Assembly (NCBI GenBank): GCA_039796295.1
Contig: JBDKJY010000011.1
Span: 93,157-157,156, forward strand
Length of the DNA: 64,000 nt
Source: Verrucomicrobiota bacterium
GTDB taxonomy: Bacteria; Verrucomicrobiota; Verrucomicrobiia; Limisphaerales; SXTU01
Direction: 5' to 3'
The position numbers and the translations under genes are program-made. This document shows positions 590-59,533 of the stretch, one piece after another (the stretch's first letter is position 1; every line of letters starts with the position of its first letter). The notes below the pieces were generated by a model. The model was given only the letters and a program-made list of their open reading frames with translations. It did no database searches and was not told where the DNA came from.

Positions 590-599
590 GTCCCCTTCT

Positions 600-1544: not shown

Positions 1545-1557
1545 TCACACCGCCTTT

Positions 1558-20621: not shown

Positions 20622-21884
20622 TCATGCGGCTACCGGAGCCTTCTCCTCGTCCTTCAGCATCGCCTCGAACTCACGCAGGCTGGGCCGAATCTCGCGGGTT
20701 TGGCCCACATGGCCGGTCATCGCTTCGAGCGTCTTGAGGCCGTTGCCGGTGATGCAGAGGACGGCGGAGTCGGTCGCGGGAATCTTGCCAGAGGCGATGA
20801 GCTTCTTCGCCACGCCCACGGTCACGCCGCCAGCGGTTTCGGCGAAGATGCCTTCGCACTCGGCCAGCAGGCGGATGCCCTCGCGCACCTCGTCGTCGGT
20901 TACATCGTCGGCGTGGCCGCCGGTTTCTTTCATCACCTTGAGCGCGTAGAAGCCGTCGGCGGGCGTGCCGATGGCGAGGCTCTTGGCAATGGTGTTGGGC
21001 TTCACGGGCTTGAAGAAGTCCATGCCCGCCTTTTCGGCGGAGCTGATGGGGTTGCAGCCGGTGGCTTGCGCGCCGTGGATGTGCCACGCGCTGTCGGAGA
21101 TGAGGCCGAGCTTGGCGAACTCTTGGTAGCTTTTGTGAATCTTCGTGAGCAACGAGCCGCTGGCCATCGGCACCACGGTGTGCTGCGGCGTGCGCCAGCC
21201 AAGCTGCTCGCAAATCTCGAAGCCCATGCTCTTGCTGCCCTCGGCGTAGTAGGGGCGCATGTTCACGTTTACAAAGGCCCAGCCGAACTTGCCGGCAATC
21301 TCCGCGCACAGGCGGTTCACCTCGTCGTAGTGGCCCTTGATGCTGATGACGTTCGCGCCATAGACGAGCGAGTTGACGACCTTGCCGAGTTCGAGGTCGG
21401 ACGGGATGAAGACGTAGGACTTGAGGCCGGCGGCGGCGGCGTTCGCGGCGACGGAGTTGGCGAGGTTGCCGGTGGAGGCGCAGGCGACGGTCTTGAAGCC
21501 GAGCTCCTGCGAACGGCTGAGGGCCACGCTCACGACTCGGTCCTTGAAGGAAAGGGTCGGGTAGTTTACTGCGTCGTTCTTAATCCACAGCTCGCGGATA
21601 CCGAGGCACTTCGCCAGCCGGTCCGCCTTCACGAGCGGTGTGTAGCCGACCTGGCAACCGACGGTCGGCTCGCCCGCGATGGGCAGCAGCTCGCGGTAGC
21701 GCCACATGGTGCGGGGGCGCGACTCAATGGCGGCGCGGGTGAGGGATTGCTGGATGCGTTCGTAATCGTAAGCGACTTCGAGGGGGCCGAAATCAAACTC
21801 GCAGACGTGGGTGGCGCCCAGGGGGTATTCGCGACCGCACTCGCGGCACTTGAGTGCCTTCATGAAACCTTTGTGCTTGTCCAT
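20622..21884 (-). CDS. Threonine-synthase-family PLP enzyme (ThrC-like; candidate MetM-type homocysteine synthase)
   Basis: 420 aa. N-terminal zinc-ribbon-like CRECGREY..HVCE. PLP-lysine region NYPTLSFKDR. Family blocks ACASTGNLANS and CITGNGLK. Confidence 0.8.
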   Translation of the reverse strand: MDKHKGFMKALKCRECGREYPLGATHVCEFDFGPLEVAYDYERIQQSLTRAAIESRPRTMWRYRELLPIAGEPTVGCQVGYTPLVKADRLAKCLGIRELWIKNDAVNYPTLSFKDRVVSVALSRSQELGFKTVACASTGNLANSVAANAAAAGLKSYVFIPSDLELGKVVNSLVYGANVISIKGHYDEVNRLCAEIAGKFGWAFVNVNMRPYYAEGSKSMGFEICEQLGWRTPQHTVVPMASGSLLTKIHKSYQEFAKLGLISDSAWHIHGAQATGCNPISSAEKAGMDFFKPVKPNTIAKSLAIGTPADGFYALKVMKETGGHADDVTDDEVREGIRLLAECEGIFAETAGGVTVGVAKKLIASGKIPATDSAVLCITGNGLKTLEAMTGHVGQTREIRPSLREFEAMLKDEEKAPVAA

Positions 21885-21965: not shown

Positions 21966-22088
21966 CTTCTCATCTTTCCCCCGGCCTCGCGGTCGGAGCT
22001 GGAATTAGCACCTGGTCACTGCGGGACGCGCCGCAATCGGTTGCCGTGACGTCATCGGGCCAGTCCCTCAGTCACTCTGGATGAGTGT
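21966..22088 (-). promoter_or_regulatory. SAM-I (S-box) riboswitch aptamer
   Basis: Minus strand reads CUCAUCCAGAG..GAGGGACUGGCCCGAUGA..CGGCAACC..GGUGCUAAUUCCAGC..AGAUGAG. This matches the conserved S-box core segment by segment. Confidence 0.85.
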
Positions 22089-22262: not shown

Positions 22263-23726
22263 TCATGCCACCAGTTTCAGCGACTTCACCGCTTCGACGG
22301 CCATCTCCAGCGCGCCGTCGGGGTTCAGGCCGAGCCAGAGCATCCCGGCGATGCACACGCCGAGAGCGAACTTGGTCGGGAGCGAGACGGGAATGGGCGT
22401 GAGGTCGGTCGTGCCCTTGCTCCAGTAAATCGCCCGCACCACGTTGAAATAGTAATAGAGCGAGATGAGGACGCCCACGACGGCGACGGCGAACAGCCAG
22501 TAGTAAGCGTGCCAGCGGACGCCTTCGGCGATGACGGCTTTGAGCAGGAGAAACTTGCCGAAGAAGCCCGCGAGCGGCGGGATGCCGGCGAGGGAGACCA
22601 TCGCCAGCGTTAGCGAGGTGGCGAGGAGGGGCGAGCGTTGCGCGAGGCCGGCGAGCGCGGAGATGTCTTCCGCACCGGCCTTTTCCACAACGACGGCGAT
22701 GACGGTGAACGCGGCGAGCACGGTGAAGAGGTAGCCGGCGAGGTAGTAGAGAATCGCCGACGAGCCGGCGCGGTTCATCACGGCGAAGCCGAGCAGCAGG
22801 TAGCCCGCACTGGCGATGCTGCTGTAGCCGAGCAGGCGCTTGAGGTTGCGCTGCGGGATGGCGCAGAGGCTGCCGTAGAGAATCGTCGCGGCGGCCATCG
22901 CCATGAGAAGCTTCTCCAAGTGGAACGCGAGGTCGGGAATCGCCGTGCCGAGCAGGCGCATCAGGAGCACGACGCCAGCGGCCTTCGAGCCCACGGCGAG
23001 GAAAGCGGTCGTGGGGGTGGGCGAGCCTTGATACACGTCGGGGGCCCAGATTTGGAACGGCACGGCGGCCATCTTGAAGCCAAGGCCCACGAGCACGAGC
23101 AAGATGCCGGTGAAGAGCAGCTTGCTCGAAGCCCCGGTGGTGTTGCCCGCCACGCGTTCGGCCAGCTCGTTGAAGTTCATCGTGCCGCTCGCGCCGAAGA
23201 TGAGCGCGATGCCATAGACAAGGAAGCCGGACGAGAGCGCGCCGAGGATGAGATATTTCACGCCGGCTTCGAGCGATTCCACCCGGCGGCGGAGGAAGCT
23301 AACGAGGACGTAGAACGTGACGGTTATCAGCTCCAGCGAAACGAAGAGCAGTATGAAGTCGTTGGCCGACGCGGCGAACATCATGCCGGCCAGCGCAAAG
23401 AGGGTGAGCGCGAAAAACTCGGACTGCCCCGACTCGAAGCGGTCGCTGAACTCGGTGGCCATGATGAGCACCAGCAGCGCGGCGAGGAGGAAGAAGCGCT
23501 TGAACCACAGCGCAAGGCCGTCGAGGACGTAGGCGTTGCCGAAGGCGTAGAGCGTCTCGGTGCCGTCGAAGGCGAAGAAGCTGTAGAGGAGCACGACCGC
23601 CACGCCTAGCACCGCTCCGTAGCCGAGCGTGCGCCGGTCCTTCGCGGGCGTGAACCAGTCCTGCACGAGCACGACCAAGCCGAGGAGTCCCACGGCGAGT
23701 TCGAGGACAATGAGAGAGGCGTTCAT
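22263..23726 (-). CDS. nuoN: NADH-quinone oxidoreductase subunit N
   Basis: 487-aa polytopic antiporter-like protein. Last gene of the nuo series. Confidence 0.85.
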   Translation of the reverse strand: MNASLIVLELAVGLLGLVVLVQDWFTPAKDRRTLGYGAVLGVAVVLLYSFFAFDGTETLYAFGNAYVLDGLALWFKRFFLLAALLVLIMATEFSDRFESGQSEFFALTLFALAGMMFAASANDFILLFVSLELITVTFYVLVSFLRRRVESLEAGVKYLILGALSSGFLVYGIALIFGASGTMNFNELAERVAGNTTGASSKLLFTGILLVLVGLGFKMAAVPFQIWAPDVYQGSPTPTTAFLAVGSKAAGVVLLMRLLGTAIPDLAFHLEKLLMAMAAATILYGSLCAIPQRNLKRLLGYSSIASAGYLLLGFAVMNRAGSSAILYYLAGYLFTVLAAFTVIAVVVEKAGAEDISALAGLAQRSPLLATSLTLAMVSLAGIPPLAGFFGKFLLLKAVIAEGVRWHAYYWLFAVAVVGVLISLYYYFNVVRAIYWSKGTTDLTPIPVSLPTKFALGVCIAGMLWLGLNPDGALEMAVEAVKSLKLVA

Positions 23727-23739
23727 TCAGCGGTCAAAG

Positions 23740-25314
23740 TTATCGCGGCTGCACGGCGCGCTGCTTGGCTTCGTCGGCGGCTTTCTTCACGTCGCCGGGG
23801 CGCGCGGCCTTGTCGGCGGTCTTCGTGTTGGCCATCGTGAGGATGGCGGCGACACTGGGTTGAATCTTGTCGGTCAGCAGGCGCGGCCAGACGCCGAGCA
23901 ACAGCAGCGCGGCGAGCAGGAGGACGAAGGGCACCTTGGCCCAAGCGCTGGCGTCCTTGAGCGCGGCCCACTCGGACTTCTCCGGGCCATGCAGGATGTT
24001 GCGCACCGCGCGGAGCATATAGACGGCACCGATGATGAGCGCGCCCCAAGTGGCGAGCGTTGTCACGAGCGGGAAGGCGCGCCACGAGCCGAAGAGCACC
24101 ATTGCCTCGCCCACGAAGTTCGCGAAGCCCGGCAAGCCGCAGCCGGCGAGCATTGCCATCACGAGCGCCGCGCCGAGGAAGGGGATTTGCCGCAGCAAAC
24201 CGCCGAGCTTCTCCATCTCCAGCGTGCCGGTCTTCTCGCGGAGTGCGCCGCTCAGGCCGAAGGTCAGTGCGGCGAGGAAGCCGTGCGCGACCATCACCAC
24301 AACCGCGCCGGTCACGCCGACGATGCTCAGGCTGGCGATGCCGAGGAAGATGAAGCCCATGTGCGCGACGCTGGAGTTGCCGATGAGCAGGTTCAAATCC
24401 TTCTGCCGCATCGCGACGAGGCCGCAGTAAACGATGTTGCCGAGACAGAGGAAGGCGAGGATTTCGAGCCAGGCCGTTGCGCCGTCGGGCATGAGCGGGA
24501 TGCCGACGCGCAGCAGGCCGTAGAGACCGAACTTCTTCAGCACACCGGCGTGGAGCATCGCGGTGGCGGTCGGCGCGGCCCCGTAGCCGAGCGGCGCCCA
24601 GGTGTGGAACGGCCAGAGCGAGACGAGGATGCCGAAGCCGAACAGCAACAACGGGAAGATGAGTGACTGCGCGGCGAGCGGGAGCGGGCGGGCCTTCACG
24701 GCCTTGGTCAGCTCGACGATGTCGAAGGTGTTCGCGCCGGACTGGATGTAGAGCGCGATGAGGCCGGCCAGCGCGATGAGCGCGCCGAGGCTGAGGTAGA
24801 TGGTGATTTTGAAGGTGGCGTAGTTGCGGTTCTCGCCGTGGCCCCAGACGCCAATCATGATGAAGGTCGGCACCAGCGCCAGTTCGTGGAAGAAGTAGAA
24901 GAAGAAGAGGTTCAGCGACGCGAACGCGCCGAGGATGCCGCCGGTCATGACCAGCAACAGGGTGTAATACTCCTTCTCCAGCCGCGTGATTTCGCGCGAC
25001 ACGCACGCAGCGGCGAACGCCACGATGGCCCCCATGACGATGAGGCCGAGGTTAATGCCGTCCACGCCGAGGTGCCAGCCGATGTCGAGCTTCAGGGCGG
25101 AGACGTTCACCCACGCGTGCTTCTCGACGAACTTGAAGCCGTTCTCGACCGGGGCGGCGTTGTATTTGGCGAACAGCGCGAGCGCGAGCAGCATCGAGGC
25201 GAGCGTCGCGCCGAGCGTGACGAGGCGGATGACGAACTTGTAGTTGCGCGGGATGCACAGGACCACAAGCGCGGCCACCAGCGGCAGGAGGAAGATGGAG
25301 GAAAGCAGCGACAT
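23740..25314 (-). CDS. nuoM: NADH-quinone oxidoreductase subunit M
   Basis: 524-aa antiporter-like subunit in the position after nuoL. Confidence 0.85.
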   Translation of the reverse strand: MSLLSSIFLLPLVAALVVLCIPRNYKFVIRLVTLGATLASMLLALALFAKYNAAPVENGFKFVEKHAWVNVSALKLDIGWHLGVDGINLGLIVMGAIVAFAAACVSREITRLEKEYYTLLLVMTGGILGAFASLNLFFFYFFHELALVPTFIMIGVWGHGENRNYATFKITIYLSLGALIALAGLIALYIQSGANTFDIVELTKAVKARPLPLAAQSLIFPLLLFGFGILVSLWPFHTWAPLGYGAAPTATAMLHAGVLKKFGLYGLLRVGIPLMPDGATAWLEILAFLCLGNIVYCGLVAMRQKDLNLLIGNSSVAHMGFIFLGIASLSIVGVTGAVVVMVAHGFLAALTFGLSGALREKTGTLEMEKLGGLLRQIPFLGAALVMAMLAGCGLPGFANFVGEAMVLFGSWRAFPLVTTLATWGALIIGAVYMLRAVRNILHGPEKSEWAALKDASAWAKVPFVLLLAALLLLGVWPRLLTDKIQPSVAAILTMANTKTADKAARPGDVKKAADEAKQRAVQPR

Positions 25315-25317
25315 GGC

Positions 25318-27312
25318 TTAGTGAGCGGGCGATTGAAGGAGTAGCTGCCACGCCAGCACGAGCACCACGCCGGCGGCGAAGAGGAAGGCGTAGGTTTGCA
25401 GGCTGCCGGTCTGCACGAGGCGCAGGGCGCGGCCAAACAGCTCGGTGGTGCCGTGTGTGCCACGCACGAGGAGGCCGGCGATAATCCAGCGGTCGAACCA
25501 GTCGGCGACCTTCGCGAGCGTCTCCTGCGTGACGGAGATGAACCACTCGTAAAGCTCGTCGAAGTAGAAGCGGTCGCGGGCCATCTTCGCGAGCACGCCG
25601 AGCTTGTCGGGCAGCGGGTCACGCCCGGCGTTGGTGTAGAGCGCGCGGGCAAGCTTGTAGCCGGCCACCACTGCCAGCAGGCCGAAGCCGGCGGCGAGGA
25701 TGTTGTGGTTGAACGGGGCGAAGAGGTTGTTCAGGAAGCCTTCGTTGTGCGGCGCGTGCTCGCTGGGCAGCGCCTTCGCAAGGTAGGCGTCAATACCCAC
25801 GGCTCCGGCCAGCAGCGTCGGCACGGCGAGCACGACGAGCGGCCAAGTCATCACGCCGGGCGATTCGTGCGCGTGGCTGGCTTCCTCGCTGCGGGCGTTG
25901 CCGCAGAAGGCGACCAGCACGAGGCGGCTCATGTAGAAGGTCGTCAGGCCCGCGACGAACACGCCGAGGACGAAGAGTGGAATGTTCCGGTGCGCCGGGT
26001 CCAGCGCGGCGGCGAGGATGGCGTCCTTGCTGAAGAAGCCGGCGAACGGCCACACGCCGCAGAGTGCGAGCGTGCCCCAGCGGAACGTCCACCAGGTGCG
26101 CGGCATCGCGTCGCGCAGGCCGCCCATCTTCCAGATGTTCTGCTCGTGGTGGCAGGCCAGAATCACCGAGCCAGCCCCGAGGAAGAGCAGCGCCTTGAAG
26201 GCCGCGTGCGTGGTGAGGTGGAACATTGCGGACTGCGGCGAGTGAAGTCCGACGGCCATCACCATGTAGCCGAGCTGCGAGAGCGTGGAGTAGGCGAGGA
26301 TGCGCTTGATGTCGTTTTGCTGGAGCGCCATGAGCGCGGCGAGCAGCGCGGTGAAGCCGCCAATCCACGCGATGAACTCCAGCGCGTGCGAGCCGGGAAT
26401 ATCGAGCAGGAAGAAGATGCGGCAAAGCATGAACACGCCAGCGGCGACCATCGTGGCGGCGTGAATCAGCGCGCTGACCGGCGTGGGGCCTTCCATTGCG
26501 TCCGGCAGCCAGACGTGCAGCGGGAACTGCGCGGACTTGCCCATCGCGCCCATGAAGAGCAGCAGGCCGACGAGCGTGACGAGGACGTTTGGGTGAACCA
26601 GCCACCAGTTCGTGGACTGGAAGATTTTCCCCAGCGGTTCAGCGAGCACGGAGAACCCGGCGGCTTTGTCGGCGAGCCGGCCGCCCAATTCAACAGCACT
26701 GGCCAGTTCGGTGAAGTTCACCGAGCCGAGCGCGGCCCACGTGAGAATGATGCCGAGGATGAAGCCGAAGTCGCCGACGCGGTTGGTGAGGAAGGCCTTC
26801 TTCGCGGCGTCCGCGGCGGAGTTCTTCTCGAACCAGAAGCCGATGAGCAGGTAGCTGCTCACGCCGACCAGCTCCCAAAACACGAACATCATGAAGAGGT
26901 TGTTCGCGAGCACGATGCCGAGCATCGAGAAGGTGAAGAGGCTCAGGCTGGCGAAGTAGCGGCTGTAGCTGCGGTCGCCGTGCAGGTAGCCGCGCGAGTA
27001 GATGTGAATCATCAGCCCGACGCCGGTGACGACGAGGAGCATGAGCTTTGAGAGTGGGTCGAGCAGCAGGCCGAAGGAGACTTTCAAGTCGCCAACGGAG
27101 AGCCAGTTGAAGTTCGTTTCAATGGCTTTGTCGCCAGCGAAGAAGAAGAGGCCGAGGCTCAGGATGAAGCCGAGGGCAATCGCGCCGATGGAGCGGTTTG
27201 CGGTGCGCTCCGGGTCGCGACAGGGGCAAGCCAGTGCGACCACCGCCGCCGCGAGCGGCAGGAGCAGAATCGTCAGCGCGGCGTAGCCGGCGGGGCTGAG
27301 AGTGGGTTCCAT
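25318..27312 (-). CDS. nuoL: NADH-quinone oxidoreductase subunit L
   Basis: 664-aa antiporter-like subunit with a long C-terminal extension. Confidence 0.85.
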   Translation of the reverse strand: MEPTLSPAGYAALTILLLPLAAAVVALACPCRDPERTANRSIGAIALGFILSLGLFFFAGDKAIETNFNWLSVGDLKVSFGLLLDPLSKLMLLVVTGVGLMIHIYSRGYLHGDRSYSRYFASLSLFTFSMLGIVLANNLFMMFVFWELVGVSSYLLIGFWFEKNSAADAAKKAFLTNRVGDFGFILGIILTWAALGSVNFTELASAVELGGRLADKAAGFSVLAEPLGKIFQSTNWWLVHPNVLVTLVGLLLFMGAMGKSAQFPLHVWLPDAMEGPTPVSALIHAATMVAAGVFMLCRIFFLLDIPGSHALEFIAWIGGFTALLAALMALQQNDIKRILAYSTLSQLGYMVMAVGLHSPQSAMFHLTTHAAFKALLFLGAGSVILACHHEQNIWKMGGLRDAMPRTWWTFRWGTLALCGVWPFAGFFSKDAILAAALDPAHRNIPLFVLGVFVAGLTTFYMSRLVLVAFCGNARSEEASHAHESPGVMTWPLVVLAVPTLLAGAVGIDAYLAKALPSEHAPHNEGFLNNLFAPFNHNILAAGFGLLAVVAGYKLARALYTNAGRDPLPDKLGVLAKMARDRFYFDELYEWFISVTQETLAKVADWFDRWIIAGLLVRGTHGTTELFGRALRLVQTGSLQTYAFLFAAGVVLVLAWQLLLQSPAH

Positions 27313-27313
27313 G

Positions 27314-27619
27314 TCAGAGTTTCAGCGAGGTCAGGTCTTCCACGTGCGCGGACTGGCGCTTGCGGTAGAGCGCGACGATGAGCGCCAGGCCGACGGCAAC
27401 CTCCGCCGCCGCGACGGTGATGATGAAGAAGACCATCATCTGGCCGGTGAGGTTTTCGTTGAACCGCGAGAAGGCGACGAGCGCGAGGTTGGCGGCGTTG
27501 AGCATCAGCTCCAGCGACATGTAGATGACGAGGACGTTGCGCCGCAGGATGACGCCCAGCAGCCCGAGGCAGAAGAGCATCGCGCTGACGGTGAGGTAGT
27601 GTTCGAGGCCGACGTTCAT
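27314..27619 (-). CDS. nuoK: NADH-quinone oxidoreductase subunit K
   Basis: 101 aa, three TM helices. Motifs LMLNAANL and [10 protein letters not shown]. Confidence 0.85.
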
Positions 27620-28128
27620 TTCAGCTCCTTCTTGCTCAGGAGAATCACGCCCACCATCGCCACGAGCAGGAGGACGGAGACGATTTCAAAGGGGAGGAGA
27701 AACTGGCCCTTGGTGAACAGTTCGAGGCCGAGCGCCTTGGTGTCGCCGATGACGCGCGGGTTGGCGGATTGGTTGAGGTCGCCGCCCCAGATGGTCTTGG
27801 TGAGGAGGAAGCCCAGGCCCATCACCGCGCCTGTGCCGGTGACGATGCCGAAGAGGTTTATCTTCCGGCGCTGCTCTTCTTTGAGGTCGAGCAGCATGAT
27901 TACGAAGAGGAAGAGCACCATCACCGCGCCCGCATAAACGAGGATTTGCACCGCCGCGAGGAAGAAGGCGTTGAGCAGCACGAAGAGGCCGGCCATCGCG
28001 CAGATGGTCAGCACTAGGAACATCGCGCTCGTGACCGGATTGCGGCTGAACGGATTGGCCACCACTAGCGCGCCGAAGAGGAGCGTCAGGAAGGCGAAGA
28101 GGTAGAAAAGAATGTCAGGCAAAACCAT
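27616..28128 (-). CDS. nuoJ: NADH-quinone oxidoreductase subunit J
   Basis: 170-aa hydrophobic protein. Stop overlaps the nuoK start. Confidence 0.8.
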
Positions 28129-28132
28129 GCGC

Positions 28133-28702
28133 TTAATTCACTGGAACGTTCTTAAACAGAAACACTTTATCCACACCCTTCCATTTGATTTTGAACCGAA
28201 TGTCAACAGGTCCGGTCGGTATGCTCTCACCTTCGCTGTAGCATTCCGCGCAAATACCAGCTCGACCCTCTGGCGCACTCATCTGCCTCAGTTCATTGTG
28301 ATGTGGAAGATCTTCGAAGCCCATAGTTCCACCGCTTGTCCCCGAACCATCGAGGATTGATTTTCCGTCCACCAAAATATCCAGCTGATCCTGAGTTGAC
28401 ATGGAAACCTGTCCGAATGCGCCCTCTCTTGGGACTTCAAGCCAGAATGTAACCTTGAAAAAAGGTAGAGCAGATAACCTCTTGTGGTCCTCTGCCATCA
28501 CCCGATTGCGCCACGGGTCGTGTGGATCCGTGTAAATCGTGTGCCGTTCTAAACGAAGCAACACGACGCGCACTTCGCCCTGAGTTTGCTCTGGATTGAA
28601 TGCTGGGATGCTCTTTTGCTTTGCTGCCTGCGCAATCACAATTCCGGCGATGACAGCGACTGCAGCCATCAAGACGACGGTTGGTTTGAAGCGGATTTTC
28701 AT
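28133..28702 (-). CDS. Orphan single-pass membrane protein inserted between nuoI and nuoJ
   Basis: 189 aa. N-terminal hydrophobic anchor KPTVVLMAAVAVIAGIVIAQA. Visibly AT-richer than its flanks. 9-nt gap to the nuoI stop and 4-nt gap to the nuoJ start. No recognisable family. Confidence 0.7.
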   Translation of the reverse strand: MKIRFKPTVVLMAAVAVIAGIVIAQAAKQKSIPAFNPEQTQGEVRVVLLRLERHTIYTDPHDPWRNRVMAEDHKRLSALPFFKVTFWLEVPREGAFGQVSMSTQDQLDILVDGKSILDGSGTSGGTMGFEDLPHHNELRQMSAPEGRAGICAECYSEGESIPTGPVDIRFKIKWKGVDKVFLFKNVPVN

Positions 28703-28711
28703 GGTTGCGGG

Positions 28712-29269
28712 TTAAACCTTCACCGGGAAAGTTTCCTGCTCCTTCGCCTCGTTCTGCTTGTGCTTCCACTTCTGGATGCCGGGGTGCGTGCCGCCAAGGG
28801 CGAGGAGTTTCTCCTTGTCGTAAATCATCTCGCCGCGCGCGAGGCCGGTGAGCGAGAAGTCGCTCTTCAGGAAGATGGCTTCTTCCGGGCAGACTTCCTG
28901 GCACAGGCCGCAGAAGATGCAGCGGAGCATGTTGATTTCGAACTCCTCCGGCATCTTCTCCGCGTTGGTGCGGTCGGCGGGCTTGCCGTTCGGGCCGGGC
29001 GGCGTGATGCGGATGGCCTTGGGCGGACAGACGAATTCGCAGAGCTGGCAGGAGACGCACTTGGTCGCGCCGTCCTGGTCGCGCACGAGATACGGCGCGC
29101 CACGGTAGCCCGGCAGCACACGCGTCGGCTCCTCGGGATACTGCTGCGTGACGGGCGTCTTGGTGGTGAGGGTGTTGAGGAAATGGCGCGTGGTCACCTT
29201 CAGCCCGCCAATGATGGCCGGCAGATAGAGCCGCTCAAACCAAGTCAGTGCGTTGCGTTTGACAATCAT
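28712..29269 (-). CDS. nuoI: NADH-quinone oxidoreductase subunit I (2x 4Fe-4S)
   Basis: CVSCQLCEFVCP and CIFCGLCQEVCP ferredoxin motifs. Confidence 0.9.
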   Translation of the reverse strand: MIVKRNALTWFERLYLPAIIGGLKVTTRHFLNTLTTKTPVTQQYPEEPTRVLPGYRGAPYLVRDQDGATKCVSCQLCEFVCPPKAIRITPPGPNGKPADRTNAEKMPEEFEINMLRCIFCGLCQEVCPEEAIFLKSDFSLTGLARGEMIYDKEKLLALGGTHPGIQKWKHKQNEAKEQETFPVKV

Positions 29270-29282
29270 GGTCGCGCGTCGG

Positions 29283-30425
29283 TCAACGGTTCGTCAGGGC
29301 CAGCACGGCGGCGGTTAAGATGATGTTTGCCAGCGCCAGCGGAATCATCCGCCGCCAGCCGAGGTCCATCAACTGGTCGTAGCGGAAGCGTGGGAGCATC
29401 CAGCGAATCCACATGAAGATGAACATGAACGTAAGCATCTTCCCCATGAAGATGCCGATGTGCAGCAGGCCCTTGAACCACTCGCCCGCCTCGGGCGCGA
29501 CGTCGAGGCCGAGGATCGGCAGCGTCCACCCACCGAAGAACAGCGTCGTCATCATCGCCGCGCCAGCGAACATGTTCGCGTATTCGCCGATGAAGAACAT
29601 GCCGAACTTCATCGAGCTGTATTCCGTGTGATAGCCGCTGACGAGTTCGGACTCGGACTCCGCCATGTCGAAGGGCAGGCGGTTCGTTTCCGCGAGGGCT
29701 GAGATGAAGAAAATCACGAAGGACACCACGCCGCACGGGACGAGCAACCATTGTTGCAAGCCAAAGCCGCCACCAACGACCGGGAAGACGTTCCAGCCGT
29801 TCTGCGCCTGGTGTTCGATGATTTTGCCGAGGTTCAGGTCGCCGACGACGAGGAACACCGGGATGACGCTCATGCCCATTGCGATTTCGTAGGAAATCAT
29901 CTGCGCGCTGGCGCGGATGCCGCCGAGGAAGGGGAACTTCGAGTTCGCCGCATAGCCCGCCAGCACGATGCCATACACGCCGAGCGACACGATGCCGAAC
30001 GTGTAGAGGATGCCGACGTTCAGGTCCGCGATGACCATCTTCTGCGCGCCGAGCGTGGAGCCGAACGGAATCACCGCGATGACGAGGAACGCCGGCACGA
30101 GCGAGATGGCGGGCGCGAGCCAGAAGTAAATCTTCCGCACGTGCGCCGGGGTGAAGTCTTCCTTGATGAAGCTCTTCACGCCGTCCACGAGCGGATGCCA
30201 GAAGCCGAGCTTGGTGAGGAACGGCCCGAGCACCGGAATGCTGCCGATGAACGGGAGGTTCACGCGGTTCGGCCCGACGCGGTCCTGGATGAGTGCGGAG
30301 ACCTTGCGCTCCGCCAGCACCGCGTAGGCGACGAGCGTCAGCAGCGGCCCCAGCACGCACGCGATCTTCAGCAGCGTGAAGAACACGAACTGCGTTTGCG
30401 GACTTAATGAATCAAGCCAGGCCAT
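29283..30425 (-). CDS. nuoH: NADH-quinone oxidoreductase subunit H
   Basis: 380-aa polytopic protein. AESESELVSGYHTEYSSMKFGMFFIGEY. Confidence 0.9.
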   Translation of the reverse strand: MAWLDSLSPQTQFVFFTLLKIACVLGPLLTLVAYAVLAERKVSALIQDRVGPNRVNLPFIGSIPVLGPFLTKLGFWHPLVDGVKSFIKEDFTPAHVRKIYFWLAPAISLVPAFLVIAVIPFGSTLGAQKMVIADLNVGILYTFGIVSLGVYGIVLAGYAANSKFPFLGGIRASAQMISYEIAMGMSVIPVFLVVGDLNLGKIIEHQAQNGWNVFPVVGGGFGLQQWLLVPCGVVSFVIFFISALAETNRLPFDMAESESELVSGYHTEYSSMKFGMFFIGEYANMFAGAAMMTTLFFGGWTLPILGLDVAPEAGEWFKGLLHIGIFMGKMLTFMFIFMWIRWMLPRFRYDQLMDLGWRRMIPLALANIILTAAVLALTNR

Positions 30426-30432
30426 GGAAAAA

Positions 30433-32181
30433 CTAGATTTGCACCGTCACACCCGTGTCGCCGAGCTTCGCCCACTCCAGCCCCGCGAAGCCGGGGACTT
30501 CGCGCGCCATCTGGTTGAACAGCCCTTCGATGGTCGAGAAGCCGTTCTGGCCGGTGACGTTGTGGACCAGCTCGTGCAGGAATTCCCACTCGGGCCGGGC
30601 GTAGCCGGGGGCCTCGACGGCCTTCATGAACTTTTGCACGCGGCCCTTCACGCTCACAAACGTGCCGCGCTTCTCGACGTGCGCGCAGCCGGGCAGAACG
30701 AAGTGCGCGGCGGCGGTCGTCGCGTTCGGGAGGATGTCGCTGACGATGAGCGTGTCGAGCTTCGCGAGCAGGTCCGCGCCGATGCCGTGCTTGGTCACGT
30801 CCTCGCCGAAGACGATGAGCGTGCGGATGCTGCCGTTGCGGATGCCGTCGGCAATCTTCGCGAGGTTCGCGCCGAGCTGCGGGCCGGCGATGCCGGTGAG
30901 CCGCGCGCCGTTGGAGTTCGGGTTCTTGTCCGCGTTGACGAGGAGTTTGTCGCCCTCGCCGGTGCGGGCGACGGAGTCGGTCAGCGCGTTGAACTTCTTC
31001 GCTAGCTTGGCCAGGAGCCAGAGTTCTTCCGTCGTCTGCCGTGCGCTGGCGATGACGGCCACGCTGCCGTTCGGAGCAGAGCCGAGTTTGGCGGAAATGG
31101 CTTTGAGAGCAGTCGGCCAGGCGACTTCCAACATCCCGCGTTCCGCAATCCGCATTCCACATTTCTGGAGCCGGTCCGCGCGGCCAATCCACTTGTAGTT
31201 TAAGCGGCCCGAATCGCACATCCACGTCGAGTTCACCGCGTCGTTCTGGCGCGGCTCATAGCGATAGACCTGCTCCTCGCGCGACCCGACGACAATGTTG
31301 CAGCCGGTGCCACAGCTCGTGCAGATGGACTTCGTCTCCTTCATGAACCACACGCGCATCTGGAAGCGGAAGTCCTTCGACGTGAGCGCGCCCACCGGAC
31401 AGATGTCCACGGTGTTGAGCGTGTAGTTGTTGTCGAACTTTCCCTCGGCCCACGCGGCAATGGTGTTGTAGCTGCCGCGATTGACGATGCCGAGCGCGTC
31501 GTCGCCGGCGATGTCCTTCGTGAAGCGGATGCAGCGGGTGCAGAGCACGCAGCGCTCGTCATCGAGCACGATGCGCGGCCCGAGGTCCACGGCCTTGGGC
31601 TTGTGAACCTTCGCCTCGACGAAGCGGCTCTGCGCCTGGCCGTGCTCGACGGAGTATTCCTGCAACTTGCATTCGCCGGCTTGGTCGCAGATGGGGCAGT
31701 CGAGCGGGTGGTTGATGAGCAGCGATTCCAGCACCGCTTCGCGCATCTGCTTGGTCGCGGGCGAATTCGGGTAAATCTCCATGCCCGGCGAAATGGGCGT
31801 GGCGCACGCGATGGCTCCGCGCGGCGTGGTCGGCTCGTAGGGCAGCACGGACTTCGCAATCTTCGGGGTGCCGTCCTCGTTCAGCACCGGCTTGCGGTCC
31901 GGTCCCATCTGCGGCGTGCCGAACTCGACGAGGCACATGCGGCAGTTACCGGCGATGGGGAGCTTCGGGTGGTAGCAGTAATGCGGCACCTCGTGCGCTG
32001 CGAGCTGGCAGGCCTGGAGCATCGTGGTCGGCTGCGGCTTGCCCTGCCAGTCGGGCATCATCTTCGGCACCTCGATTTCGCGCCCGTCCACCTTAATTTT
32101 GATTTTGTCGGAGGGCGGCGGCGGAGCCGGCGCTGCGGCGGGCGCGGCGGGCTTGGCTTCAGTTGTCGCGGGGGCGGACAT
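30433..32181 (-). CDS. nuoG: NADH-quinone oxidoreductase subunit G (short form)
   Basis: Cys clusters CYHPKLPIAGNCRMCLVE, HPLDCPICDQAGECKLQ, CVLCTRCIRF. Confidence 0.85.
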   Translation of the reverse strand: MSAPATTEAKPAAPAAAPAPPPPSDKIKIKVDGREIEVPKMMPDWQGKPQPTTMLQACQLAAHEVPHYCYHPKLPIAGNCRMCLVEFGTPQMGPDRKPVLNEDGTPKIAKSVLPYEPTTPRGAIACATPISPGMEIYPNSPATKQMREAVLESLLINHPLDCPICDQAGECKLQEYSVEHGQAQSRFVEAKVHKPKAVDLGPRIVLDDERCVLCTRCIRFTKDIAGDDALGIVNRGSYNTIAAWAEGKFDNNYTLNTVDICPVGALTSKDFRFQMRVWFMKETKSICTSCGTGCNIVVGSREEQVYRYEPRQNDAVNSTWMCDSGRLNYKWIGRADRLQKCGMRIAERGMLEVAWPTALKAISAKLGSAPNGSVAVIASARQTTEELWLLAKLAKKFNALTDSVARTGEGDKLLVNADKNPNSNGARLTGIAGPQLGANLAKIADGIRNGSIRTLIVFGEDVTKHGIGADLLAKLDTLIVSDILPNATTAAAHFVLPGCAHVEKRGTFVSVKGRVQKFMKAVEAPGYARPEWEFLHELVHNVTGQNGFSTIEGLFNQMAREVPGFAGLEWAKLGDTGVTVQI

Positions 32182-32186
32182 GGAAA

Positions 32187-33581
32187 TCAGTGTTTGGCGG
32201 CGGCGGCGTTTCTCGCTTCATCTGCCGCGCCCTTTGCCTCGAAATCGTCTTTGAACTTCTTCACGTAGCTCAAGACCGGCCAGGCGCAGGCCTCGCCGAA
32301 GGCGCAGATGGTGCGGCCCTGGATGTTCTGCGCGATGTGCAGCAGGTAGTCAGCGTCAGCCTTGCGGCCGTGGCCGTGGGTGAGGCGGTGGAGGGCTTTG
32401 CTCATCCAGAGCGAGCCTTCGCGGCAGGGCGTGCATTGTCCGCAACTCTCGTGGGCGTAGAACTCGGCGAGGTTCGCGAGCGCCGCGACGATGTCGCGCG
32501 TGTCGTCGAGCACGATGATGGCGCCGGACCCGGACATGGTGCCGGCGGCCATGAGGGAATCGAAGTCGTAGGGCAGGTGGAGGAGCGGCACGTCCACTTT
32601 GGTCATCTGACCGTCCGCGCCCTTACGGTTGAGTTTGAAGGTCTCGCCGGCTTTGAGGATTTTCGAGGACGAGCCGCCGGGGATGATGGCCTTGAGCTTG
32701 CGGCCGTCGCGCAGACCGCCGCCGAACGCGGGGTCGTTGATGAGTTCGCCGATGGTGACTTTGCCGACCTCGATTTCAAAGTAACCGGGGCGCTTCACGT
32801 CGCCGCTGAGGCTGACGATGCGGGTGCCGGTGTTGTTGGGCGTGCCGAGCTTCGCGTATTCGCCGGGACCCATGTTCACGATGTGCTTCACGTGGCATAG
32901 GGTCTCCACGTTGTTTACGATGGTCGGGCACATGTAGAGGCCCAGCACGGCGGGGAAGTAGGGCGGCTTGATGCGCGGGTAGGCGCGCTTGCCTTCGAGC
33001 GACTCGATGAGTCCGGTCTCCTCGCCGCAGATGTAGGCACCCGCGCCGCGATGGACGTAAATCTCCAGGTCGTAGCCTGAGCCAAGGATGTTCTTGCCGA
33101 GGAAGTTCTTCGCGCGCGCCTCATCGAGGGCCTTGTTCAGTAGCTTCGCGCCCTGCGGCATCTCGCCGCGGATGTAGAGGTAGGCGAGCTTCACGTCGTT
33201 CGCCCAGCAGGAGAGAATCATCCCCTCGATGAGCTGGTGCGGGTCTTTGTGGATGATTTGGCGGTCCTTGAACGTGCCCGGCTCGGACTCGTCGGCGTTG
33301 CAGATAAGGTAGATGGGCTTGCCACTCCGGCGGTCCACAAGCGACCACTTGATGCCCGCACTGAAGCCCGCGCCGCCGCGACCACGCAGCCCGGAGGCCT
33401 TCACGTCCTCGCGCACCTGCTCTTGCGGGGACATTTTCTTGCCGTCAGGCAAGTCCTTTGGCGCGAGGGCGAGCACCTTCTTGAGCGCGTCGTAGCCGCC
33501 GTGGCGGAGGTAGCACTCGAGGTCCGGCGTGTAACCGGGCTGGTCGGCGTGCTTGAGAATTAGGCGGTGTTCCTGGGGCAT
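32187..33581 (-). CDS. nuoF: NADH-quinone oxidoreductase subunit F
   Basis: GLRGRGGAGF, CNADESEPGTFKDR, ESCGQCTPCREG. Confidence 0.9.
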   Translation of the reverse strand: MPQEHRLILKHADQPGYTPDLECYLRHGGYDALKKVLALAPKDLPDGKKMSPQEQVREDVKASGLRGRGGAGFSAGIKWSLVDRRSGKPIYLICNADESEPGTFKDRQIIHKDPHQLIEGMILSCWANDVKLAYLYIRGEMPQGAKLLNKALDEARAKNFLGKNILGSGYDLEIYVHRGAGAYICGEETGLIESLEGKRAYPRIKPPYFPAVLGLYMCPTIVNNVETLCHVKHIVNMGPGEYAKLGTPNNTGTRIVSLSGDVKRPGYFEIEVGKVTIGELINDPAFGGGLRDGRKLKAIIPGGSSSKILKAGETFKLNRKGADGQMTKVDVPLLHLPYDFDSLMAAGTMSGSGAIIVLDDTRDIVAALANLAEFYAHESCGQCTPCREGSLWMSKALHRLTHGHGRKADADYLLHIAQNIQGRTICAFGEACAWPVLSYVKKFKDDFEAKGAADEARNAAAAKH

Positions 33582-33587
33582 GGCGGC

Positions 33588-33615
33588 TTGACTCTCAGTT
33601 TGAATTCCCTACCGT
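33588..33615 (+). promoter_or_regulatory. Candidate sigma70-type promoter for the tRNA-Gln gene
   Basis: TTGACT (33588-33593), N16, TACCGT (33610-33615), about 17 nt upstream of the tRNA 5' end. The -10 is weak (T1, A2, T6 only). It overlaps the nuoF translation-start region on the other strand. Confidence 0.25.
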
Positions 33616-33631
33616 CACGCCCGCTACGGCC

Positions 33632-33705
33632 TGCCCGATGGTGTAATGGTAGCACAACAGTCTCTGAATCTGTTTGTCATGGTTCAAATCCATGTCGGGC
33701 AACCA
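33632..33705 (+). tRNA. tRNA-Gln (anticodon CUG), CCA encoded
   Basis: Cloverleaf read by hand:
- acceptor TGCCCGA/TCGGGCA
- D arm GTGT-AATGGTA-GCAC
- anticodon arm ACAGT-CTCTGAA-TCTGT (one U-U at 31:39)
- variable TTGT
- T arm CATGG-TTCAAAT-CCATG
- discriminator A, CCA; U1:A72 as typical for tRNA-Gln. Confidence 0.85.
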
Positions 33706-33710
33706 AGGCT

Positions 33711-34202
33711 TCATTTCGACTTCCCCTTCGCAAGGATTTCGTCCGCCTGCGCGGGCGTCACCTTCGGTAGCAAGTCCTCGTTCAGCAGCACCACCGGCGC
33801 GTTGCCGCAGTCGGCGAGGCACTCGACGAACTCGACGGTGAACTTCCCGTCCGGCGTGGTCTGGGGCGCGTGCTTGTGGGCGTCGAGGCCGAGCTTCGAG
33901 CAGAAGTGGGTGCGCAGTTCGCCGCTGCCGGCCAGCGCGCAGCTCAAGGTGCGGCAGACCTTGATGTGCGTCTTGCCCAGCGGCTCCTGCCGGAACATCG
34001 GGTAGAACGTGACCAGCTCGTAAACGTTGATGGGCTGGAGGCCGAGCTTCCGCGCGGTCCACTCCACGGCGTCGCGCGAGATGTAGCCGAAGTGCTCCTG
34101 CAACGCGTGCAGGAACATGAGCGACGCGCTCCGCTTCTGCGGGTAGCGCGTGACCAGCTCGTCGAGCTGGGCTTCCAAGTTGGCGGGGACGGCGAAAGTC
34201 AT
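33711..34202 (-). CDS. nuoE: NADH-quinone oxidoreductase subunit E
   Basis: 2Fe-2S Cys pattern VCRTLSCALAG ... VECLADCGNAP. Confidence 0.9.
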   Translation of the reverse strand: MTFAVPANLEAQLDELVTRYPQKRSASLMFLHALQEHFGYISRDAVEWTARKLGLQPINVYELVTFYPMFRQEPLGKTHIKVCRTLSCALAGSGELRTHFCSKLGLDAHKHAPQTTPDGKFTVEFVECLADCGNAPVVLLNEDLLPKVTPAQADEILAKGKSK

Positions 34203-35518
34203 CGGTCACATTCTCCCATCACAAAATCAATCGAGCCGAGGATGCTCACCGCATCGCTCATCATGTGGCCAGGCAACACGTGCGGCAGGATGCTCAGGTT
34301 GCAGAAGGATGGCGCGCGAATCTTCAGCCGATACGGCGTGCCGCCGCCGCGCGAGTTGATGTAGAAGCCCAGCTCCCCCTTCGGGTTTTCGGCACCGAAA
34401 TAGATTTCGCCGGGCGGTGCGTTCACGCCCTGCGTCACCAGCATGAACTGATGAATCAGCTCCTCCATGCTCGTAAGCACCTTGTCCTTCGCGGGCAAAA
34501 CGATTTTGCCGTCGGGGACGTTGATGGGTTCCTTCGCGTCGTTGTCGTCGCCGCCGGGCAACTTGGCGAGGCACTGGCGGATGAGGCGCACGCTCTGGCG
34601 CATCTCTTCCATGCGGACGAGGTAGCGGTCGTAACTGTCGCCGACAGAGCCAACGGGCACCTCGAAATCCAGCTCGCCATAGACGAGATACGGATGCGCC
34701 TTGCGCACGTCGTAATCCACGCCGCTGCCGCGCAGGTTCGGACCGGTGAGGCCGTAATCAATCGCGTCCGCGCGCGAGATGATGCCGACGTTCCGCGTGC
34801 GGTCCACGAAGATGCGGTTGCGCGTGAGGAGCGTCTCGGACTCGGCGAAGTTCACTTCCACTTCGTCACAGAACTTGCGGAGCGACTCCGCCCAGCCCGG
34901 TGGCAAGTCCCGCGAAAGTCCGCCGATGCGCGTGTAGCTCGTCGTGAACCGCGCGCCGGTCAGCCTTTCGATGAGTGAGTAAATCTTCTCGCGCTCCGTG
35001 AACGTGTGCAGGAAGACCGTGAGCGCGCCGATATCCATCGCGAACGCGCCGAGGCCGAGCAAGTGCGCCGAGATGCGCGCCATCTCGCAGCAGATGACGC
35101 GGATGTATTGGCAGCGCGGGGGGAGCTGCTTCTCGATGCCGAGGAGCTTTTCGACCGCCAGTGCGTAGGCGACGTTGTTCGCCAGCGGCGCGAGGTAATC
35201 CAGCCGGTCCGTGTAAGGGATGAACTGGGTGTAGGTCATGTTCTCGGCGATTTTCTCGTCGCCCCGATGCAGATAACCCACGTCTGGCGTGGCCTTCGTG
35301 ATGATTTCGCCGTCCAGCTCCAGGATGATGCGCAAAACGCCGTGCGTGGAGGGATGCGACGGCCCCATGTTGAGAATCATCTTCTCGCCTTGCAGCTCGC
35401 CGTCGTCGCCGTCGGTGGACGGAACGGACGCGGGCACGACCTCCGGCATGAGCGACTTGGCTCCTGCCGCCACGCGGGAGGCGGGGTCGCGGAATTCGAT
35501 GGTTTGGGCGGTGGCCAT
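34199..35518 (-). CDS. nuoD: NADH-quinone oxidoreductase subunit D
   Basis: NMGPSHPSTHGVLR. C-terminal DFVMGECDR. Confidence 0.9.
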   Translation of the reverse strand: MATAQTIEFRDPASRVAAGAKSLMPEVVPASVPSTDGDDGELQGEKMILNMGPSHPSTHGVLRIILELDGEIITKATPDVGYLHRGDEKIAENMTYTQFIPYTDRLDYLAPLANNVAYALAVEKLLGIEKQLPPRCQYIRVICCEMARISAHLLGLGAFAMDIGALTVFLHTFTEREKIYSLIERLTGARFTTSYTRIGGLSRDLPPGWAESLRKFCDEVEVNFAESETLLTRNRIFVDRTRNVGIISRADAIDYGLTGPNLRGSGVDYDVRKAHPYLVYGELDFEVPVGSVGDSYDRYLVRMEEMRQSVRLIRQCLAKLPGGDDNDAKEPINVPDGKIVLPAKDKVLTSMEELIHQFMLVTQGVNAPPGEIYFGAENPKGELGFYINSRGGGTPYRLKIRAPSFCNLSILPHVLPGHMMSDAVSILGSIDFVMGECDR

Positions 35519-35522
35519 GAAA

Positions 35523-36101
35523 TCAGTTCTCCGGCACGCGCACGCGTGGCTCGCGAGCGATACTGTCCTTGCCGCCGGCGACCGTGACGAACGGCCCTCC
35601 TTCCAGCGGCGCGGACTTGGTGAACGCCACGTCCGGCAAGTCCGTCGGCTTGCCCGCGAGCGGGAAATCCTTCCGCAGTGGAAAATACGGATAGCCGTCC
35701 CACATCAGGATGCGGCGCAGGTCGGGATGGCCACGGAAACGGACGCCCATCATGTCGTAAATCTCCCGCTCGTGCCAATCAGCTCCACGCCAGACACCGG
35801 TGACCGTGGGTAGCTCGGACTTCTCCTCGCTGACCTCGGTTTTGATGCGCAGGTGGCAGCCGTGGCCGGTGCCGTAAAGCTCGTAAACCAACGTCCAGCG
35901 CGGGTCTTCGCCGTAGTTATCAATGCTCGTGAGGTCCAGCAGCATGTCGTAGCTCAGAGACTTCTTCGCAAACTCGCAGACCTCCGCGATGCGCTCGGCG
36001 TTGGCCAGCTTCAGCGTGACTTCACCGCGAAACTCGGCGGGCGCGGACAGCACGTCGCCGAACTTGGCTTGCAACTGGTTGGCGAGTTCGGCGGAGGCCA
36101 C
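35523..36101 (-). CDS. nuoC: NADH-quinone oxidoreductase subunit C
   Basis: GADWHEREIYDMMGVRFRGHPD. GTG start at 36101. Confidence 0.85.
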   Translation of the reverse strand: MASAELANQLQAKFGDVLSAPAEFRGEVTLKLANAERIAEVCEFAKKSLSYDMLLDLTSIDNYGEDPRWTLVYELYGTGHGCHLRIKTEVSEEKSELPTVTGVWRGADWHEREIYDMMGVRFRGHPDLRRILMWDGYPYFPLRKDFPLAGKPTDLPDVAFTKSAPLEGGPFVTVAGGKDSIAREPRVRVPEN

Positions 36102-36134
36102 GGGGAAGTTGAGAGTTTGAAGTTGAGAGGCGGT

Positions 36135-36629
36135 TCAGGCGGCGAGCACCGGCTCCTTCTGAATCTTATTTTGCAGCTTGATGAGCGCGTCGAGGAGCGC
36201 CTCGGGCCGCGGCGGGCAACCGGCCACATACACGTCCACCGGGATGATCTGGTCCACGCCCTGGAGCACCGCGTAGCTGCGATACATGCCGCCGGTCGAG
36301 GCGCACGCGCCCATCGCGATGACCCATTTCGGCTCGGGCATCTGGTCGTAAATACGGCGGACGGCCAGCGCCATTTTGTAAGTCACTGTGCCCGCGACGA
36401 TCATCACGTCCGACTGCCGGGGCGAGAAGCGCATAACCTCCGAACCGAACCGCGAGATGTCGAACTTGCTCGCCCCCGCCGCCATCAGCTCGATGGCGCA
36501 GCAGGCCAGCCCCATCGGCATCGGCCACAGCGACTGCTTGCGGCACCAGTTTATCGCCGCATCCACGCGTGTGACCACGACATCACCTTCAATCTTCGAG
36601 TTGTAGCCTAGTTCAGTGCTGGTCGGCAT
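36135..36629 (-). CDS. nuoB: NADH-quinone oxidoreductase subunit B
   Basis: ATG 36629 (MPTSTELGY). [24 protein letters not shown]. Confidence 0.85.
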
Positions 36630-36698
36630 GGTGGAAGCGTGCGGAAATTGTCCGCCCACGCGGCAAGTAAAGCACCGCAAAAGAGAGCGGCAAGCGTT

Positions 36699-56289: not shown

Positions 56290-59370
<3,081 letters not shown>

Positions 59371-59533
59371 AGGGCGGGGAGTATTGGTGAAGCGCGGAAG
59401 GGTGGGCAATGGCGGAGTTGGTGCGGAGAAACGCCGTGGGGCGGGGAAAAATCAGTTGAGACGGACCCCGGCGCGTGGCTACCTTCGTGCCGAATCACGA
59501 GCGGTTGCAGTGGCCCGCCCGGATTCGGCAATC

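Follow-up and report, generated by a model that had tools for sequence, protein, structure and literature searches.

The subject of this analysis is a small open reading frame (ORF), designated ORF189, which lies among the complex I (nuo) genes of a freshwater Verrucomicrobium. It was studied within a stretch of 64,000 nucleotides (nt) of Verrucomicrobiota DNA (contig JBDKJY010000011.1, positions 93,157 to 157,156), hereafter the window. ORF189 comprises 189 codons, from an ATG start to a TAA stop, and encodes a product of 189 amino acids (aa). According to Pfam matches, the genes around it follow the order nuoB, C, D, F, G, H, I, (ORF189), J, K, L, M, N (Table 1). A sequence-only reading of the window had placed the frame between nuoI and nuoJ with gaps of 9 nt and 4 nt, and direct reading of both spacers confirms this. 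The same reading had described the nuo order as canonical and tightly packed; the gene order stands, while the packing has one exception, a 129-nt gap between nuoE and nuoF (32187..33581, minus strand), in which a tRNA-Gln(CTG) gene lies antisense (33632..33705, plus strand). Therefore, the cluster may consist of two transcription units or face head-on transcription. The single frame scanned in the nuoE region gave no Pfam match. Two plus-strand ORFs overlapping the region of interest (28112..28360 and 28586..29323) were discounted as artefacts that arise antisense to, or out of frame with, the three coding genes. No promoter-like site was detected in 27300..29500 and terminator-like sites there remained at chance level, so that co-transcription of ORF189 with nuo is the simplest reading of the sequence, which supports the earlier proposal that the frame rides on nuo transcription. 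The spacing before nuoJ is, furthermore, consistent with translational coupling.

Table 1. Coordinates of ORF189, its parts and its genomic surroundings (positions in the window).
Feature	Coordinates	Strand	Basis
ORF189, gene for a 189-aa protein of an unnamed family, predicted to be a membrane-tethered β-sandwich	28133..28702	-	ORF, GC3, dN/dS, homologues, AlphaFold2
N-terminal hydrophobic helix, aa 7-27; signal anchor or long Sec signal with AQA-A motif	28622..28684	-	AlphaFold2, Kyte-Doolittle
Predicted extracytoplasmic β-sandwich, aa 38-188; C-terminal motif F-x-F-K-x-V-P-V-N at its end	28139..28591	-	AlphaFold2, alignments
Spacer, nuoI stop to ORF189 start, 9 nt	28703..28711	-	direct reading
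Spacer, ORF189 stop to nuoJ start, 4 nt (GCGC)	28129..28132	-	direct reading
nuoI, upstream flank	28712..29269	-	TIGR01971, 114.6 bits (cut-off 113), and two Fer4 (4Fe-4S) motifs
nuoJ, downstream flank	27616..28128	-	PF00499, E = 2.8e-38; NF005164 match
nuoB-to-nuoN cluster around ORF189	22263..36680	-	Pfam: NuoB, C, D, F, G, H, I, J, K, L, M, N
nuoE	33711..34202	-	position and GC3 only

ORF189 is a genuine gene under purifying selection, as judged from substitution ratios, the existence of homologous clusters and the confidence of its AlphaFold2 model. Its nearest relative (loci and protein clusters are cited by L and P numbers, respectively) is P0002 from the metagenomic contigs L001 and L002, which occupies the same nuo position and is 89% identical over the full ORF (90% across the 178-aa called product). 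The ratio of nonsynonymous to synonymous substitution rates (dN/dS) is 0.18 between the window and L001, 0.14 between the family members of L089 and L090, and 0.07 between those of L062 and L089. Synonymous divergence (dS) between the window and L001 amounts to 0.34 for ORF189, 0.31 for nuoI and 0.24 for nuoJ; since the value for ORF189 resembles those of its neighbours, the gene appears to have diverged together with its flanks in this pair.

The frame had been described by eye as AT-richer than its surroundings and compositionally foreign, and quantification bears this out. The guanine-cytosine (GC) content of ORF189 is 0.502 against a window mean of 0.646 (z = -5.2), the lowest among all segments of 570 base pairs (bp), of which only 0.016% are as low. 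GC at third codon positions (GC3) is 0.526, against 0.85-0.945 in eleven nuo genes, and is lower than in every other plausibly coding frame within a set of 41 non-overlapping ORFs of 120 aa or more. The GC values at the three codon positions (0.58 / 0.40 / 0.53) nevertheless follow a coding pattern. Among homologues, the family gene has a lower GC3 (0.43-0.70) than the host nuo genes (0.63-0.92) at each of the eight nuo-linked loci measured, while the two most divergent members situated away from nuo, L083 and L084, show GC3 of 0.83-0.88, in line with the GC richness of those loci (0.66-0.67). Second to ORF189 in low GC within the window is a region (~57700..58450) inside leuS (56290..59409, minus strand), which encodes a leucyl-tRNA synthetase of 1039 aa; the segment of ~aa 320-570 has GC3 of 0.49-0.67 versus 0.82-0.94 in the remainder of the gene, and looks like a mosaic or inserted piece within an essential gene.

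The proposal of one N-terminal transmembrane helix followed by a soluble domain was confirmed by Kyte-Doolittle analysis (15-residue maximum of 3.13 at residue 9) and by AlphaFold2. The product begins with the positively charged stretch MKIRFK, followed by ~20 hydrophobic residues. A single-sequence AlphaFold2 model was poor (predicted local distance difference test, pLDDT, of 57) and was replaced by a model based on a 36-sequence alignment (pLDDT 90.1, predicted template modelling score, pTM, of 0.79), in which the helix is followed by 8-9 β-strands, with strands predicted at residues 38-41, 44-58, 77-91, 107-111, 123-127, 147-157, 164-174 and 177-188. A hydrophobic N-terminus is present in 23 of the 25 full-length family members, and at least five members carry a lipobox-like cysteine (VGGC, LSGC, ASSC and VVAC by pattern match, as well as LCVGC in P0006 by eye). 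Judged by these features of Sec signals and lipoproteins, the product of ORF189 is predicted to be exported or membrane-tethered. The family alignments show the motifs E-x-T-x-G-x-V-R-V-V-L-L-R and F-x-V-T-Y-x-V-E-x-P-x-x-G-A-F and a C-terminal F-x-F-K-x-V-P-V, with no conserved Cys, His or other catalytic-type residue.

Comparison with databases agrees with the earlier statement that the protein carries no recognisable motif, as sequence searches of Pfam, NCBIfam and the PDB gave no match and no fold comparison reached significance. Pfam, NCBIfam, PHROGs and PADLOC yielded only sub-threshold noise for ORF189 (the rejected matches include Sec61_beta on the helix and PF24052/phrog_4281 over 24 residues), and Pfam gave nothing recurrent across 36 family members. 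A sequence-profile search of the PDB gave only chance-level matches (expect value, E, >= 0.008), and Foldseek returned no match at E < 1e-3 in the PDB or BFVD, with best values of E = 3e-3 to 4e-2 and template modelling scores (TM) of at most 0.44. Moreover, no similarity to a known complex I subunit (Nuo/Nqo, Nqo15/16 or NDUFS4/S6/A12-like) was detected by Pfam, NCBIfam, PDB profile or Foldseek searches of the PDB. The best Foldseek match was 4eae_A (TM 0.43, E = 0.026). The highest TM scores belong to small extracytoplasmic proteins that, like the predicted product of ORF189, are membrane- or lipid-tethered all-β sandwiches, namely the Listeria protein 4eae (TM 0.42-0.44), the Clostridioides difficile protein 5bxg (0.35-0.42), and a Rhodococcus phage lipoprotein with DUF4352- and DUF5067-type proteins (0.28-0.38); however, identity is 6-12%, none of the matches reaches E < 1e-3, and DUF4352 or DUF5067 was matched at E <= 0.1 in none of the 36 family members scanned against Pfam. 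Since these β-sandwich proteins are themselves uncharacterised, they offer no functional lead. The family is thus a well-defined, confidently foldable domain described in no curated database so far.

ORF189 had been regarded as an orphan gene, a view that does not survive an exhaustive search for relatives. A phmmer search of 1.84 billion representative proteins returned 34 matches at E <= 1e-3, of which 32 are genuine clusters; P0022 and P0023 were discarded as low-complexity repeat proteins. A word-indexed search had found a single 90%-identical relative, and a few more with a profile, the family surfacing only with phmmer; a metagenome scan was made with a 7-sequence alignment. Genuine members are ~170-200 aa long, the few that bear a source name are annotated as 'hypothetical protein', and the clusters at 90% contain 1-4 sequences apiece. 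Most members of known context occupy the same slot as ORF189. Among the 18 family lineages whose genomic context could be classified, eleven lie exactly between nuoI and nuoJ (the window, L001/2, L062, L085/6, L088, L089, L090, L092, L094, L097 and L099), in hosts that are Limisphaerales/Pedosphaera-type Verrucomicrobiota; P0018 probably does likewise. These members are always on the nuo strand, with spacers of 4-27 nt per side where both flanks are readable.

The other seven lineages (L083, L084, L091, L093, L095/6, L098 and L100) stand alone away from nuo, for example after phoX (L093), infA (L095/6) or xseA (L098), which suggests that the family can work outside the operon. The surroundings of L083 include a recombinase, an IS91-type transposase, HigB and Fic. 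The nuo-linked subfamilies are only 22-40% identical, while their hosts' NuoJ are 67-84% identical to that of the window. In a crude neighbour-joining tree nuo-linked members occur on all major branches and members outside nuo form derived clusters; therefore, the nuoI-nuoJ slot looks like the ancestral home of the family. In L087, a trypsin-like protease ORF (268..1080) ends in frame with a NuoJ fragment (aa 2-33, 72% identical) and a family member (1110..1679) follows 30 nt after this fusion, which looks like the footprint of a rearrangement at the 5' boundary of nuoJ.

The distribution of the gene among close relatives is patchy. A scan for NuoJ, with one genome per species, provided 80 loci of Limisphaerales/Pedosphaera-type Verrucomicrobiota, assigned by record title and Nuo similarity. 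Some titles are unreliable, as Klebsiella, Akkermansia muciniphila, Bifidobacterium and Proteobacteria appear on contigs with Verrucomicrobia-type nuo genes (L003, L004, L006, L010, L012, L020, L025 and others). By tblastn and six-frame hidden Markov model (HMM) search, only one of the 80 species loci, L062, contains a family member. Eight relatives with NuoI/NuoJ 85-98% identical (L003-6, L008, L010, L013 and L014) have an empty site with a near-identical spacer, which reads nuoI-TAG-gcatcgcac-ATG-nuoJ (9-nt spacer, 13-nt junction). The closest of the relatives, whose NuoI/NuoJ are 95-98% identical to those of the window, lack ORF189. The nuoI-ORF189 spacer equals in length the nuoI-nuoJ spacer of these empty sites, and the 4 nt preceding nuoJ correspond in L001 to GCAC, the same as the final 4 nt of the empty-site spacer. 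From this distribution ORF189 is judged to be dispensable in the lineage of the window.

Phylogenetic comparison of gene and flanks points in the same direction as composition. Over flanks of ~950 nt, the window is separated from empty-site genomes by distances of p = 0.053-0.057 and from the carrier L001 by 0.075; in a tree of these flanks (only ~950 nt) the nearest neighbours of L001, L011 and L010, are without the family gene and carriers are polyphyletic. L085 and L089 share 91% identity in NuoI and 31% in the ORF, whereas L062 and L089 share 81% and 72%, respectively. The trees of the gene and of NuoI/NuoJ thus disagree, in keeping with lateral exchange. The suggestion that the gene was horizontally acquired is therefore supported by atypical composition, absence from the nearest relatives and this discordance. 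Rather than occupying the slot broadly with normal composition, homologues are rare, and their GC3 is below that of the host nuo genes wherever the two were compared. No NuoI or NuoJ residue is common to the window and L001 against all empty-site relatives.

Apart from this family, the nuoI-nuoJ junction is a general cargo slot in the clade. In the 80-locus sample, the nuoI-nuoJ gap is at least 400 nt in 10 of 78 measurable junctions and 150-400 nt in another 10; of 72 unbiased loci, 12 have a nuoH-nuoI gap of 400 nt or more. The cargo between nuoI and nuoJ comprises HicB with HicA (L035, L068), a 461-aa protein with no assigned family (L007, L056), a MIP channel with a low-molecular-weight phosphatase (ArsC-like; L022), an ACR3-like protein fused to ArsC (L031), an N6/N4 DNA methylase with an HNH nuclease (L048), a CDF transporter (L080) and a 231-aa secreted protein with no assigned family (L017); HicB with ORF189 occurs in L001/2, which were fetched via the family protein and stand outside the 80-locus scan. 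At other junctions, an IS200-like Y1 transposase and DUF4160 with DUF2442 were found (nuoH-nuoI), as well as PDDEXK_3 (nuoJ-nuoK) and YhcG/DUF1016 (nuoG-nuoH and nuoL-nuoM). The long cargo ORFs are nearly all on the nuo strand, tightly spaced and of lower GC3 than the host. Across hosts whose NuoJ are 69-74% identical, HicB at this junction is 71-75% and the 461-aa protein 70% identical. Since unrelated cargo is equally deeply conserved at the slot, the step from synteny to function is weakened. The nuo junctions may act as dedicated docking sites that lend a strong housekeeping promoter to defence, toxin-antitoxin and resistance genes.

Shorter fillers of 80-190 nt between nuo genes belong to families of palindromic repeat elements built of tandem units (e.g., L001 1755..1851); one family of 94-100 nt was seen at the nuoJ-nuoK junction of 12 loci, and another, with 19 members, is distributed among nuoJ-nuoK, nuoH-nuoI and nuoI-nuoJ. 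These fillers may be related to the IS200/RAYT-like genes at nuoH-nuoI. At the far end of the cluster in the window, a S-adenosylmethionine (SAM) riboswitch (71 bits; 21967..22087, minus strand) lies just 3' of nuoN and 5' of a gene for a pyridoxal phosphate (PLP)-dependent enzyme (20622..21884).

With regard to the route of arrival, ORF189 does not qualify as cargo of a transposon, insertion sequence (IS), integron cassette or prophage, as judged from repeats, recombinases and mobile-element collections. Repeats at the ends of the insert and a duplicated target site were sought, with matches at chance level only, and no recombinase is present between nuoH and nuoK in the window. No family homologues were detected in phages or plasmids (tblastn) or in IMG/VR viral contigs (scan), and a sliding-window comparison of the flanks revealed no clear recombination tract. 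Each side of the insert terminates with a CGCA(A)C/GC(G/A)C-like motif that is similar to the original spacer but too short for interpretation. Because the hallmarks of transposons are absent, recombination through the nuoI and nuoJ flanks is the likely route, and the exchange of junction alleles is the most economical account. Filled and empty alleles would be exchanged by homologous recombination through these conserved flanks, and only insertions preserving polarity and coupling would survive.

On these grounds, we give about even chances to the reading that ORF189 is a dispensable, laterally exchanged and envelope-exposed passenger, which uses nuo transcription and translational coupling and whose product binds rather than catalyses. 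We infer its route of expression, mode of transfer and envelope function along the following lines. Having no promoter of its own, ORF189 would be transcribed by read-through from nuo; its translation would begin 9 nt past the nuoI stop, at the spacing that nuoJ has in empty-site relatives, and nuoJ would re-initiate 4 nt past the ORF189 stop, so that expression of the complex I genes further downstream would be preserved. Held at the membrane by its N-terminal helix (in some homologues by a lipid anchor), the product would present the β-sandwich of ~150 aa outside the cytoplasm and, having no conserved Cys, His or catalytic-type residues, would most likely bind or shield something in the cell envelope, in a niche-specific or defence-type role and not as a stoichiometric part of complex I. 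Several points weigh against this account. By the usual logic of gene neighbourhood, the location of 11 of the 18 lineages at nuoI-nuoJ is the strongest available signal for a functional link to complex I, and the tight spacing of 4-27 nt to both neighbours suits stoichiometric co-production. A role in the envelope or in defence is conjecture drawn from topology and distribution, and PADLOC and PHROGs gave nothing significant for ORF189. Furthermore, the proposed route of mobility is unproven, with neither homologues in phage, plasmid and viral-contig collections nor repeats, target duplication or a recombination tract to attest it.

The foremost alternative, which we consider possible though on the unlikely side, is that ORF189 encodes a facultative, lineage-specific accessory subunit or assembly factor of complex I, placed on the membrane arm so that its β-sandwich would face the periplasm; co-translation between NuoI and NuoJ would serve its insertion while the membrane arm (J, K, L, M, N) is being built. 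This alternative is kept alive by the concentration of the family at exactly nuoI-nuoJ, which extends across the 22-40% identical subfamilies with the deepest branches included, always on the nuo strand and with tight spacers. It also draws on purifying selection, on the window-L001 dS that resembles nuoI and nuoJ, so that the gene travelled with its flanks, and on the predicted architecture of one transmembrane helix with a small extracytoplasmic domain, by analogy with single-pass supernumerary subunits and assembly factors. Nevertheless, the gene is missing in 78 of the 80 related species, even where NuoI/NuoJ are 95-98% identical, and its presence is not tracked by any residue of NuoI or NuoJ. 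The same slot is used, with equally deep conservation, by unrelated cargo of selfish or resistance type, one clade of the family resides outside nuo, some members are lipoprotein-like and could be sorted to the outer membrane, and Pfam, NCBIfam and the PDB show no similarity to known complex I subunits. Taken for the family as a whole, the proposal would make it an unrecognised facultative component or assembly aid of bacterial complex I, periplasm-facing and single-pass, that arose at nuoI-nuoJ of Limisphaerales Verrucomicrobiota and is for the most part encoded there to this day; this we regard as rather unlikely. Such a component would be unusual among bacteria, as no periplasm-facing or facultative accessory component of bacterial complex I is known to us.

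It is very improbable that ORF189 represents a toxin-like or effector partner of a degenerate HicB module, from which the window would have lost hicB while keeping the effector. An intact hicB-like antitoxin gene without hicA is present in L001 (457..663) and L002 (529..735). The order in L001, nuoI-hicB-ORF189-nuoJ with a hicB-ORF spacer of 4 nt, parallels nuoI-hicB-hicA-nuoJ in L035 and L068, such that the ORF189 homologue holds the exact place of hicA, and the HicB of L001 is 71-75% identical to those of the latter two loci. However, neither HicA (PF07927) nor any other toxin domain was matched, and its predicted export sets the product apart from type II toxins. Only in L001/L002 (1 of 11 nuo-linked lineages) does hicB occur with the family; none was called beside a family gene in the loci outside nuo, and apart from these a hic gene occurs near a member only in L097, as an antisense hicA behind nuoK. 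Moreover, the gene of the window has no antitoxin, yet it is under purifying selection. Scarcely credible is the reading of ORF189 as non-functional, be it foreign DNA in decay or an ORF that arose by chance, which the atypical composition and the lack of a match in curated family libraries might suggest, but which dN/dS of 0.07-0.18 in three independent pairs, a length of ~170-200 aa kept over 32 clusters, motifs conserved to the exact C-terminus, a confident predicted fold and coding-type codon-position GC all contradict.

Comparison with known systems can help to place ORF189 among the co-oriented ORFs embedded in nuo. Non-Nuo ORFs amid nuo/nqo genes have been described in alphaproteobacteria, such as urf1-urf7 of Rhodobacter capsulatus (PMC4758237) and urf7, which encodes a predicted methyltransferase (PMC9036352). 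In Rhodovulum sulfidophilum, urf1 lies between nuoE and nuoF; its product is a membrane protein that contributes its N-terminal part to the photosynthetic light-harvesting 1-reaction centre complex (LH1-RC) and is not reported as part of complex I (PMC13066640). This shows that nuo-embedded ORFs need not serve complex I and sets a direct precedent for such a gene acting in a different membrane system. Like ORF189, the urf genes of Rhodobacter and Rhodovulum/Dinoroseobacter are co-directional non-Nuo ORFs within nuo that are poorly conserved and in some cases encode small membrane proteins. ORF189, being co-oriented and without a promoter-like site, belongs to the same class, which is one of position and not a homology family. 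The two share no relation in sequence or fold (Urf1 has U-shaped tandem helices, ORF189 a predicted helix and β-sandwich), and ORF189 differs further in its occurrence in Verrucomicrobiota, its nuoI-nuoJ junction, its presence in ~1-2% of related species and its foreign composition.

The cargo genes of the clade are closer to hand. The HicAB, restriction-modification (R-M), PD-(D/E)XK 'GxxExxY', DUF4160/DUF2442 and IS200-like genes sit at the same or neighbouring junctions. The long ones resemble ORF189 in lying tightly spaced on the nuo strand, in having a lower GC3 than the host and in their patchy occurrence. Their domains are all lacking in ORF189, which is exported by prediction and differs from them in that its whole family is centred on one junction. 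Among respiratory assembly factors, Cox11/CtaG combines an N-terminal transmembrane helix with an Ig-like β-sandwich. ORF189 may be regarded as analogous to it in architecture, predicted topology (N-terminus in, domain out) and location in a respiratory operon, but it has no copper-binding or conserved Cys/His motif, shows no sequence or structure match to such single-pass subunits and assembly factors and is dispensable in the nearest relatives.

The link between this family and complex I is striking but ambiguous, and its meaning depends on which reading holds. The recruitment of supernumerary subunits has usually been approached only through mitochondria. If the product is bound to complex I, it would provide a facultative, periplasm-facing component with which to ask how such subunits are recruited. 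If ORF189 is instead a passenger, it would add to the precedent of alphaproteobacterial urf1 that ORFs embedded in nuo need not serve complex I. The essential, highly conserved nuo operon of these Verrucomicrobiota tolerates co-oriented cargo at several junctions, with genes for toxin-antitoxin, restriction-modification, arsenic and metal resistance, nuclease and transposase functions among it. In the passenger case, 'guilt by operon' annotation would need caution in this phylum, and accessory genes could gain expression from the operon and spread through its conserved flanks.

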